Positions 17,301 to 20,300 of a DNA stretch of 41,632 nt are shown here, piece after piece. The notes beneath the pieces were generated by a model. The model saw nothing but the letters and a program-made list of their open reading frames with translations. It was not told where the DNA came from and made no database searches. The position numbers and the translations under genes were made by a program. Positions within the stretch are counted from its first letter, which is position 1. Each line of letters begins with the position of its first letter. This DNA comes from a virus, in IMG/VR virus record IMGVR_UViG_3300045988_015973, positions 1 through 41,632 of that record, one strand, 5' to 3'.

Positions 17301-20300
17301 ACGATATGCAGAAGGTCAACAGCGCATACACAAAAAAGAACCCCGCCAGCTTCATCCAAAGCAGCGAGGTTTTGTATGCAGATCAAAAAAGAACCATTCC
17401 GCTTCTTCGCCAAACTGGGCTTACAATAGCGTCCCAGCCGCTTCTGCGAAATGGTTCTATTGGTAGTATATCCTACGAAGGAAAAAATGTCAACCTGAAA
17501 GGCGTGCCATTTGGCGAAGTGGTACAGGCCGAACGACAAGGAGGAAACAATGGAAAGAACGTATCTGCTGAAGGACAGGAACGGAATGCTGGTGCGCGTG
17601 CCGGAGAGCAAGCTAGGCGAGTGGAGCAAGCAGCAGGAGGGCGAAGCGAAAGCGCCAGCCGAGGACGAGAAAGAGCGGATCAGGCAAAAAATCTATCAGG
17701 AACTTGGCCTCAAGTAACGAATGCGGAGCTGATCGGCGAGGGCGGAACGCAGAGCACGGTCGCCGTCATGCCGGCGGCGGAAATTCGGAAGAACGTGGAC
17801 GCGAAGAAGGCGGCAGAGTTCTTCCGCACGGCAGGGATCAAGCGCTATCAATTCGTCGTCGGGCAGTTGGAAATCACGGCCGACGGGCGGACGTTCCGCG
17901 CGGACGGCGTGACGCTAGCCGATGGTACAGTGCTGGTGCGGCTGGACAGCGAGGAATATTCCGCGACGCAGCTTGCCAAGCACGAAGGGTATCACATCAT
18001 TGCACAGCGCAACGCTGAGATGGCGCAGCGCATCCGCAAGCGGCTGGTGGCCGAGGGAAAGATCAGTAAGGCGCAGATCGACAGCTACATCGACGCCTAC
18101 AACGCGATCTACGGAGACAACACGGACGCCTACGTTGAGGAAATCGTAGCGGACGCCTACGCCGGGATCAACCGCACGGCCTACGGCACGAACAACATCC
18201 GCGCCGAGGTGACGATGGAGGCTGGGCAGTGGACGAAGAAGTCCGGCAGCGCGAGGGCGCCGCCAGAATTGCAATTCTCAGCCAGTGCGGAGCAGGCGAA
18301 AAACGACCAGACGGAAACAGAAGCCTTTAAGAAATGGTTTGGCGATTGGCAGAATCACCCGGAGCGCGCAAGCAAGGTGGTCAATGCGGATGGAACGCCG
18401 AAGGTGGTCTATCATGGGACATTGGCGCATGGTCTGCATGAGTTTAAGAAATCATTCATCGGTAGTCGATTCAGTTTCGACGAAACGGGTTTTTTCTTTA
18501 CAGACAATAAAAGTCTCGCGCAGGACTACGCAACAGGTGATTTCGATAACAGTAAAGGAGAGGTTATACCGGCGTACCTAAATGTGCGCAGACCATTGGT
18601 TTTTGATTCCCAGTATGCTTTGAAGAATGGTTATGGAAAAGTGTTCCGAGAAAATGATGCGGTAGATGTATGGGACGCATATCAAGGCGCGATTTTGGAC
18701 GAAGCACAGGAAATGCGTGCGGACGGTATTATTGTAAATGACGGTACGTCGGAGATGGTGGTCGTCTTTGAACCGAACCAAATCAAGAGCGCGACGGACA
18801 ACGTCGGGACGTTTAATAGGTACAACCCGGACATCCGATTCTCGGCCAGTGCGGAGCAGATCAGCGAGCAGGACAGAGAGAATCTGAACAAAGTGCTGGA
18901 AATGATGGACGCGGAAAATGACGGCATTTTCCGGGACGCGGTGCTACTGCGAAATCCGAAAATGCTGCAAAAGCTTGTGGCGGAACGCGGAAAAACGGAA
19001 AGCGCTGCATTCACGCGGTGGTTTGGGAACAGCAAAGCGGCCAACCGGAACGGCGAGCCGCTGCTGGTGTTCCATGGAGCGGGTGCAAGGTTTACCAAGT
19101 TCGATGCGGGCGGAAAGCCGATTTGGCTGACAGCGAACATCCAGTATGCAGAAAAGTATTCCACGGCGAATAGAGCTGCTGAGAAACTGCTGCCAAGCTC
19201 GTCAATTTATGCGGGGAACGTTGACAGGGTGATCCCAGCGTATATCCGTGTCGAAAATCCGGCGAACGTTGGGGACACGGACGGCGGGTTTGATGGAAAC
19301 TATATGGATCTAGCGAAACGGATCGGAGTGCGCCCAAGTGAACTGCGGCAGGCATGGGAAGAAGCCGGAAGACCGGAAATGTTGTGGCAAGCGGTCAACT
19401 CGAAGCAGATGTCAGAGCTGCTGAAACGGAATGGGTATGATGGAATCCAAGCGATTGAGAACGGTGTAGCAACATGGGCAGTGCTGGAACCGACGCAAAT
19501 CAAATCTGCCGTGGCAAACAACGGCGCATTCAGTCTGAAAAGCGCAGACATCCGGTATGCTTCGGCACAGCAGCGGTTCCGGGATGCACTGCCGGAGCGG
19601 GCGGCGGAATATGTAGCTAGGACGGAAAACACACTGGTGCGGCGGCTGGCAGACAATCTGAGCGTGCCGGAGACGGCGAAGCGCGAGACGCTGCGGCCAA
19701 TCGCCGACGAGATCATCTACGACGTACTGCGCGGCGGCGAGATGAACAGCGCGAAGCTGAACCGGCTCTTTGAACAGGCATGGGACGCCGGGCGGGAAGC
19801 CGACACGGAATACTATGAGCAGTACAAGGATGTGCGCGAGAAAATCCGCACGCAGAAGCTTTTTATCTCGGCGAAAGACCGGGCGGACATTGCGGACTTT
19901 AACCTGTTCCGCAAGCAGACCATGGGCACGCTGCGCCTTTCCAGCGATGGATTGCCGGTCGACACGTTCTATCAGGAGATGCGGGACATGGCACCGGAGC
20001 TGTTCCCGGCGAGCATCACCGCACCGAGCGACCAGCTCTTGCAACTCTATGAGGTGGCGCAGAGCATCCAGAAGCGCGAAAAGACGCTGAGCGAAGCGTT
20101 TGGCGCACAGGCCGAGAGCTTCAAGACGTGGGCGCGGAATGACTTTGATGAATCCGTGCAGCGGCTTGCGGAAGGAATCCGCATTGCGAAGCGCTATCAG
20201 GAAGCGCAGGAGCGCAAGAAAGAGAAGCTGGGCGTGCCGCAGACGGCAGAGGAAGCCATGGAGCTTGCGAAGGAGGTCAAGGCCGAGAAGAAGAAATTTC

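Follow-up and report, generated by a model that had tools for sequence, protein, structure and literature searches.

A predicted small gene nested out of frame in a phage polyvalent-protein gene, and its association with an HExxH module

The IMG/VR virus record IMGVR_UViG_3300045988_015973 (positions 1 to 41,632; the whole stretch of 41,632 nucleotides is here called the window) contains a giant open reading frame (ORF) that encodes a phage protein of several effector-like modules. Within this ORF, on the same strand and in its +1 frame, lies a 55-codon ORF preceded by its own Shine–Dalgarno (SD) sequence. This raises the question of whether the small ORF is a gene in its own right and, if so, to which part of the giant protein it belongs. 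The explanation that we consider probable is that the region forms a dual-coding cassette, in which a small protein would be made by internal initiation from what is probably the older of the two frames; a role for it as partner of a zincin-like domain encoded immediately downstream is possible.

The nested ORF and selection on its frame

The nested ORF extends from ATG 17550 to TAA 17715–17717 and encodes a 55-amino-acid (aa) product, MERTYLLKDRNGMLVRVPESKLGEWSKQQEGEAKAPAEDEKERIRQKIYQELGLK, according to both the sequence and the list of ORFs; the boundaries and the translation given in an earlier note on this DNA matched exactly on rechecking. The SD sequence of the small ORF is read as Gly-Gly in the giant frame. 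Over 17550–17717, 41 of the 55 third codon positions are G or C in the small frame, compared with 18/55 for the giant frame and 34/55 for the remaining frame (G+C at third positions, GC3); the counts for the first two reproduce those made earlier by hand. Amongst all SD-bearing alternative-frame ORFs inside the giant ORF, this reversed GC3 signature (0.75 versus 0.33) occurs only here. The earlier note had also described a loss of codon bias in the giant frame at this point and a return to about 87% immediately downstream. GC3 is indeed low across the overlap, but the drop begins at about 17345, before the overlap; it does rebound downstream, but to 0.84 and 0.82 (windows starting at 17720 and 17795). 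The statement there that the downstream part has no in-frame start with an SD sequence also needs a qualification: an in-frame ATG does exist at 17768, but it is SD-less and is not conserved in distant lineages. No promoter-like site was found on the plus strand upstream of the small ORF.

In about 29 divergent lineages of phages and prophages of gut Clostridia, a giant ORF contains a homologue of the small ORF in its +1 frame, at identities down to about 31%. Clustering at <85% identity gave 30 lineages, of which 29 are nested. The related sequences come from human-gut viromes and from metagenome-assembled genomes (MAGs) of Oscillospiraceae, Lachnospiraceae and other Clostridia; homologues at 31–49% identity were recovered in scans of IMG/VR and of GTDB genomes, a narrower family alignment being used for the latter as the full-family alignment was too diverse. 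With the exceptions of L082 and L083, every phage-type locus has its homologue in the +1 frame of a giant frame that is open over >1,000 to 3,148 codons, and the six MAG loci (Oscillospiraceae, Lachnospiraceae and other Clostridia) are all nested, with giant frames of 2,366–3,148 aa. The L082 homologue is a domain of an ordinary protein of 495 aa. In L083, a break in the giant frame occurs about 60 nucleotides (nt) past the small-ORF stop, and the near-identical L081 has no such break; either the sequence of L083 contains an error or the polyvalent gene is naturally split at the cassette. In the L002 contig, a giant-frame stop lies 725 nt further downstream of the small ORF.

The initiation signal is conserved together with the ORF. 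An SD core, mostly GGAGG or AGGAG, is found 3–9 nt (mostly 8) before the start codon in 29/29 lineages, giving the typical layout GGAGG-N8-ATG, and the start codon is ATG in 27 lineages, GTG in one and TTG in one. The check that had been proposed for the prediction, namely that homologous giant genes keep the small ORF, thus came out in its favour, with ORF, SD sequence and start codon present in all 29 lineages. The converse, a linker retained with a broken small ORF, was seen in no lineage, and only rare single-contig variants of the C-terminus were found (P0014 and P0015). These two and P0016 are metagenome variants, each from a single contig, with a frameshifted or replaced C-terminus or, in one case (a protein of 48 aa), an in-frame deletion of seven codons in an acidic linker; all of them retain at least the 42 N-terminal residues. 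A tblastn search of GenBank phages with the 55-aa peptide returned nothing relevant, and missed a divergent copy in MT835607 that was later seen in the +1 frame.

Comparison of the two frames points to the small ORF as the main target of selection. In close relatives, the ratio of synonymous to non-synonymous codon variants is 12:12 in the small frame versus 6:20 in the giant frame. Across 11 lineages, the small frame retains the core E..YLME..NGMLVRVPESKLE.W, and the giant frame over that core reads RNAGARAGEQ, RNAGSGAGEQ, RNVGTGTGEQ or RDAGKSAGGQ. Summation of entropies over 21 core columns gives 13.1 for small-frame codon position 1, 10.9 for position 2 and 18.4 for position 3; the residues G, V, R, V and E are invariant in the small frame, and their codons vary freely at the third position. 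Small-frame position 2, the least variable, coincides with position 3 of the giant frame, a pattern contrary to that expected under selection on the giant frame. Over 30 lineages, position 3 of the small frame is more variable than position 2 (p = 0.007), and the mean pairwise aa identity is 37.8% in the small frame versus 30.0% in the giant frame, being higher in the small frame in 378/435 pairs. These patterns show in the small frame the marks of purifying selection at the amino acid level, and the codon variants, entropies and pairwise identities all back the earlier proposal that selection acts mainly on the embedded frame.

The giant frame carries a constraint of a different kind. A giant-frame stop arises wherever a T-ending small-frame codon precedes a codon starting with AA, AG or GA. 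In the 11 lineages, T-ending codons are found at 0/267 of these stop-creating junctions versus 32/511 other positions, and the giant frame is stop-free over the overlap in every one of the lineages. When the small ORF was randomized synonymously, the giant frame stayed open with a probability of 0.01–0.53 per lineage; the product over the 11 lineages is 4.5e-13, a value that is overstated in so far as the lineages share ancestry. The other alternative frame contains one to six stops in 10/11 lineages and none in L070. Avoidance of stops in the giant frame, together with the presence of stops in the other alternative frame, indicates that the region is truly dual-coding, and shows a giant frame that appears to be constrained mainly to remain stop-free.

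The predicted gene is therefore a complete ORF within another ORF of the same strand, in a different frame and with a conserved initiation signal of its own. On these comparative grounds 17550–17717 is confirmed as dual-coding, and the nested gene as real rather than a product of chance or of an assembly error; the earlier claim of an overprinted gene inside a giant ORF that has to be read through is likewise supported. We infer strongly that the small ORF would be translated by internal initiation at its own SD sequence and start codon on the mRNA of the giant gene.

Coupling of the nested ORF to the HExxH module

Downstream of the small ORF, the giant frame always encodes the same module, whereas the upstream modules vary by lineage. 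The consensus of the downstream module is VSS.ELGL..GTD...VLPE.AWD...ETG...FVLG.IQI...RGV...IIVQAD...QIADHE.FH...EEI.ADAYAGIN, and in most lineages it begins on the codon that overlaps the small-ORF stop. An HExxH motif is present in 39/39 unique pairs of small ORF and module. In a converse test, 80 IMG/VR loci were fetched by the module pattern DAYAG[IM]N alone. The small ORF was found directly upstream in the +1 frame in 79/79 testable loci, and above it the giant frame ran on without a stop for 600 nt or more; the contig of the eightieth locus starts within the module. Relative to the module start, the small-ORF stop is 4 nt inside the module in most of the 79 loci, and no more than about 26 nt away in any.

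In three relatives (MT835607, L016 and L018), the HExxH module is situated 5' rather than 3' of the MuF_C domain, which in the window precedes the overlap, and the small ORF (MAVSRLLMKDKSGRLVSVPKDR...) has moved along with it. The nested ORF is thus to be assigned to the HExxH module rather than to the nuclease-like MuF_C domain. The suggestion in the earlier note of an immunity or chaperone factor for the adjacent toxin-like domain would accordingly have to concern the downstream HExxH module. The relocations show modules that have been shuffled within polyvalent genes whilst the cassette of small ORF and HExxH module stayed intact. Together with the results in both directions of search, they show that the two form an inseparable cassette in about 29 phage and prophage lineages of Clostridia.

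The module is likely to be zincin-like, as judged from its motif and its predicted fold. In 13 diverse modules, H90, E91, H94, Y125, E143, D147, A150 and N153 are invariant. The AlphaFold2 model, which was built from only eight sequences, has a core with a predicted local distance difference test score (pLDDT) of 80–91 and shows an N-terminal helix and a beta-sheet followed by the HExxH helix and, further on, a helix with the invariant Glu. The two latter helices, at residues 83–98 and 136–148 of the model, provide the pairing of an HExxH helix with a later helix bearing a conserved Glu. The order of secondary structure elements matches the description of zincins given by Iyer et al. 2017 (PMC5512222). 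A search for homologues with the module profile recovered only seven fragments.

Origin, possible function and alternative explanations

The small-protein family is not confined to overlaps. A profile search of 1.84 billion representative proteins gave 47 clusters (50% identity) at E up to 1e-3, and 14 of these consist of proteins of 171–412 aa in which the domain lies at or near the C-terminus, behind transmembrane segments; in P0021, P0040 and P0056, a YHYH-like region precedes these segments at the N-terminus. The genes for the fused proteins examined sit beside repressors and integrases or recombinases (Table 1), which are lysogeny-module positions. Such positions are the typical home of superinfection-exclusion and defence genes. 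PADLOC found no defence match for nine fused proteins or for the small protein itself. The existence of the domain in ordinary, non-overlapping proteins favours a speculation of the earlier note, that the small ORF is the relic of a gene captured when two genes fused. Because the domain exists in ordinary genes, the small frame is probably the older and the giant-frame linker the newer of the two.

In the AlphaFold2 model of the small protein (43-sequence family alignment; mean pLDDT 74.7, and about 85 for the first 30 residues), a beta-hairpin (4–8/14–18) and a helix (19–30) are followed by a weakly predicted acidic linker and a second helix (38–52). Searches of PHROGs gave only weak matches for the small protein, to phrog_8750, a family of unknown function. 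A relationship to the swapped-hairpin antitoxins of the AbrB/MazE type, which a G..VR(V/I)P motif had suggested, was dropped: Pfam gave no match, a profile search of the PDB returned only an SH2 protein (E 0.13), and SpoVT stood at rank 30 in Foldseek (E 4.5).

These observations can be assembled into a possible course of events. The polyvalent ORF probably arose by out-of-frame reading across the small gene, which was left intact, so that upstream modules became fused to a peptidase gene that had once followed the small gene. The giant gene now reads the overlap as a flexible linker in which Gly, Ala, Arg and Gln are abundant. By internal initiation on the late mRNA, the small protein would be produced alongside the giant one. 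A tentative assignment, which we regard as possible, is that the small protein acts in trans as a partner of the zincin-like domain, an inhibitor or a chaperone being the most likely roles. Synthesized in the producing cell at the same pace as the giant protein, it might restrain or shape the peptidase until packaging or injection. Iyer et al. 2017 (PMC5512222) propose that metallopeptidase domains process the polyvalent polypeptide autoproteolytically. Prophage membrane proteins that carry the domain of the small protein at their C-terminus, and whose genes lie beside repressor and integrase genes, may bind incoming polyvalent proteins through it. A further extension, which must be called doubtful, is that the small protein serves as a 'safety catch' on the peptidase, and that prophages have captured the domain as a membrane-anchored trap or sensor for incoming polyvalent proteins; this would cover the fusions to membrane anchors and, in one case, to a restriction-endonuclease-like N-terminus, expressed beside a repressor.

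A number of findings weigh against parts of this explanation. The codon-position signal is modest when all 58 aligned columns are taken together, and the difference between positions 3 and 1 is not significant, so that the signal is concentrated in the conserved core. In addition, the giant-frame linker motif ERQNL.R.LRL also looks conserved, and some dual constraint is possible. The contigs in which gene callers predicted the small ORF are short or gapped. No characterized protein was matched significantly by the small protein in a PDB profile search, in Foldseek searches of PDB and BFVD, or in Pfam, NCBIfam and PADLOC. For the module of the window, Pfam (E up to 5) offers no family and NCBIfam no match, and the best Foldseek matches, although to zincins (PprI/IrrE, anthrax lethal factor and ZMPSTE24), are not significant (E at least 0.14; template-modelling score about 0.3), probably because the module alignment is shallow. 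The link of the small protein to the peptidase consists of co-occurrence and adjacency only, and the HExxH module of this clade is absent from the vicinity of the fused family members that were examined.

Four alternatives to a nested gene with internal initiation and a tie to the HExxH module were considered, each of low probability. Under programmed ribosomal frameshifting, ribosomes would slip out of the giant frame and the 55-aa domain would become the alternative C-terminus of a truncated MuF protein, with the SD-like sequence as stimulator. Internal SD-like sequences do stimulate frameshifting in prfB and dnaX. The small frame of the window is open for 51 nt 5' of ATG 17550, and the domain does form the C-terminus of other proteins. 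However, a stop closes the small frame 0–6 nt before the start codon in eight lineages, the conserved SD-N8-ATG arrangement has the geometry of initiation, and the start regions inspected show no slippery sequence that is conserved. Since the RNA fold at the nested site is ordinary as well (z = 0.09) and no Rfam family was matched there, frameshifting appears improbable. Less probable again is that the small ORF encodes an immunity protein for the upstream MuF_C (RNase-like) toxin domain. It would fit the arrangement in the window, where the small ORF directly follows MuF_C, just as small immunity ORFs follow the toxic domain in MuF polymorphic toxins (Jamet et al., 2017), but it does not fit the relatives: in MT835607, L016 and L018 the small ORF lies 5' of MuF_C beside the relocated HExxH module, L010 keeps the end of MuF_C and passes straight into a different module with no small ORF, most lineages have an upstream module other than MuF_C, and the small ORF accompanies the HExxH module in 79/79 loci.

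The remaining two alternatives deny the small ORF a role of its own or deny the unity of the giant ORF. If conservation were due to the giant frame or to the nucleotide sequence, as a linker, a cleavage site or a recombination joint, the small ORF would be a passive by-product. The visibility of ERQNL.R.LRL ahead of the module, and the nucleotide conservation of the adjoining 17345–17500 for reasons unrelated to the small ORF, would be in keeping with this. It is nevertheless rated very low, below the immunity explanation, as position 3 of the giant frame is the least variable codon position, the small-frame residues G, V, R, V and E are invariant over freely varying third positions, the SD sequence, start and stop of the small ORF are all kept, and the same domain is found in proteins without an overlap. 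The least credible of the four is an artefactual fusion, in which a MuF-type gene, the small gene and a peptidase-ART gene have been joined by an assembly or sequencing indel or because a stop codon was lost by chance. In one relative, gene callers report separate genes of 985, 55 and 1655 aa, and the Pfam name MuF_C implies a C-terminal domain; but a run of N, marking a scaffold gap, lies exactly at the split. In every independent assembly examined, including the 79/79 module-fetched loci and the six MAG loci, the upstream and downstream parts are in one frame with no stop, and relatives that lack the cassette after MuF_C also read on into other modules. The avoidance of stop-creating junctions (0/267 versus 32/511) argues in the same direction. 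The indel error that the earlier note had suggested checking for is not borne out: the one relative that gene callers split has the scaffold gap, and the +1 relation holds in 79/79 loci.

Comparison with known systems and other features of the window

Same-strand nested genes are known from phages, as in the Rz/Rz1 spanin genes of phage lambda and in B-in-A and E-in-D of phiX174. As with Rz/Rz1, the present locus has a complete small gene, with its own SD sequence and start, in the +1 frame of a larger gene and on the same mRNA. The products of Rz and Rz1 act together, which is matched here by the strict coupling of small ORF and module, known in this case from sequence. Unlike in Rz/Rz1 and phiX174, the host gene encodes a polyvalent protein of about 3,000 aa with multiple effectors and the overlap is limited to an inter-domain linker. 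Also unlike those systems, the nested family exists outside overlaps, which suggests that the linker, and not the small gene, is probably the newer frame. A second point of comparison is the Zn-peptidase family COG2856 (ImmA/IrrE), whose members are paired with a small upstream gene for an Xre-type helix-turn-helix (HTH) repressor that is both partner and substrate. The likeness consists of a small gene immediately 5' of a zincin-type peptidase, and the best, non-significant, fold match of the module is PprI/IrrE. The partner here differs, however, in being composed of a beta-hairpin and helices with no HTH, and with Foldseek E values of 0.14 or worse homology is not established.

Jamet et al. 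2017 (PMC5576092) described MuF toxins of temperate phages, with metallopeptidases in 20% of cases and a small ORF by the effector domain. The window shares with them a MuF-type virion protein, toxin-like domains and a small ORF adjoining an effector domain; it differs in that the small ORF lies within the gene, out of frame and ahead of its partner module. In contrast to a toxin-immunity arrangement of that kind, the small ORF keeps to the HExxH module and can be parted from MuF_C. According to Iyer et al. 2017 (PMC5512222), MuF-C is a PBECR RNase-fold domain and the zincin-like domain is the commonest domain of polyvalent proteins. As in the proteins that they describe, MuF-C, an HExxH domain and ART are combined in one polypeptide amongst virion genes, although the HExxH module of the window is one that Pfam models do not recognize. 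The words 'overlap' and 'frameshift' do not occur in the main text of that paper, so that the system as described there does not include nested genes, and no description of a gene nested in a polyvalent or MuF gene was found in the open-access literature searched. The nested gene is thus apparently undescribed, whereas same-strand nesting and MuF-adjacent small ORFs are already known.

Nested genes are routinely discarded in phage annotation, and this one is deeply conserved in giant injected polyvalent effectors, a poorly understood class of proteins. In this clade the zincin-like domain would gain an obligatory small partner, which makes the timing and manner of polyprotein processing directly testable. 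The analysis also defines an unannotated small-protein family of gut Clostridia phages that is found in prophage lysogeny modules too, where its members hint at a link between polyvalent effectors and superinfection exclusion. If the 'safety catch' proposal were true, it would represent a new principle of superinfection exclusion, built on the phage's own regulatory peptide. Likewise, if the proposed origin is correct, out-of-frame reading through a gene that itself stays intact is a way in which a polyvalent gene can arise; the overprinted frame would then probably be the linker of the large gene, exemplifying a route of gene fusion that spares the intervening gene.

The coordinates of the features are collected in Table 1. 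By its domain content, with MuF_C, ART-PolyVal and an HExxH module in a single 2948-aa ORF amongst virion and packaging genes, the giant ORF is a predicted polyvalent protein of a temperate phage in the sense of Iyer et al. 2017 (PMC5512222). It is preceded by genes for terminase, internal virion protein, portal and major head and followed by a tail fibre gene, a neighbourhood that implies that the protein is delivered along with the DNA.

Table 1. Features of the window and of related loci
Feature	Coordinates	Strand	Basis or remark
Giant ORF, 2948 aa, phage polyvalent protein (predicted) in virion structural operon	14345..23191	+	ORF list, Pfam, neighbours
MuF_C domain (PBECR RNase-like), nuclease-like module 5' of overlap	17087..17392	+	Pfam PF18819, E 9.8e-16, aa 915-1016
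End of MuF_C module, not in overlap	17345..17500	+	Giant-frame GC3 ~0.4, nt sequence nearly invariant
Giant-frame linker across nested gene	17499..17713	+	Translation; rich in G, A, R, E, Q, low complexity, stop-free
SD sequence AAGGAGG of nested gene	17538..17544	+	5-nt spacer aaaca, then ATG 17550
Nested 55-codon gene (predicted)	17550..17717	+	+1 frame of giant ORF, homologues, selection on frame
HExxH module (likely zincin-like), giant frame	17714..18289	+	Starts on codon overlapping nested stop; conserved in all lineages
In-frame giant-frame ATG, no SD sequence	17768..17770	+	Start for gene callers only where scaffold gap broke ORF
HEGYH metal-binding motif of HExxH module	17981..17995	+	
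ART-PolyVal domain, aa 1348-1490	18386..18814	+	Pfam, E 2.4e-48
Large serine recombinase/integrase	31909-33762	-	phrog_95, E 6.6e-110
Relocated cassette, L001 (MT835607)	2660-3400		
Relocated cassette, L016	about 8800-9600		
Relocated cassette, L018			
L083, interrupted giant frame	2307-3218		
L082 495-aa protein, domain mid-protein	2245-3732		Restriction-endonuclease-like N-terminus (by eye); near serine recombinase
Fused P0021			Between HTH repressor and serine recombinase
Fused P0046			Between cI-like HTH-Peptidase_S24 repressor and tyrosine integrase
Fused P0044			Between ImmA-like HE..H ORF and serine recombinase
Fused P0056			Two genes 3' of HTH gene, same strand
Fused P0055			Beside divergently transcribed HTH gene
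Loci of fused/non-overlapping family members	L045 2574-3812; L173 6001-6570; L171 490-1509; L170 2143-3315; L172 3499-4104		

The end of the MuF_C module, at 17345–17500, is genuine coding sequence, shows about 100% nt identity amongst relatives and is retained even where the downstream module differs. Its codons are unusually A/T-ending, and on the minus strand it contains a near-consensus sigma-70-type promoter, TTGACA-17-TATACT (11/12; site 17493 to 17465). An antisense promoter, or a joint at which modules are exchanged by recombination, would be possible roles for the segment.

The motif (Q/R)FSASAEQ was found twice in a motif scan, at nt 18275–18295 and 18839–18859 (aa 1311 and aa 1499), flanking ART-PolyVal. 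In relatives of the MT835607 type, KFSASADQ directly follows MuF_C, and TGPPE(R/K)(Y/W)S forms the end of HExxH modules in other lineages. All three are candidate processing sites or module-shuffling joints.

Over 18320–18700, the first part of the ART-PolyVal module, G+C is 0.43–0.51 versus about 0.6 around it, and GC3 in the giant frame is low. A second nested ORF was sought in this dip and none was found, the dip corresponding to the ART module, which is probably of foreign, lower-GC origin.

The presence of the serine recombinase/integrase gene indicates that the window represents a temperate phage of about 41.6 kb. Its IMG/VR relatives are 40–43 kb in size, and one relative, L084, is integrated in a 403-kb Oscillospiraceae MAG contig.

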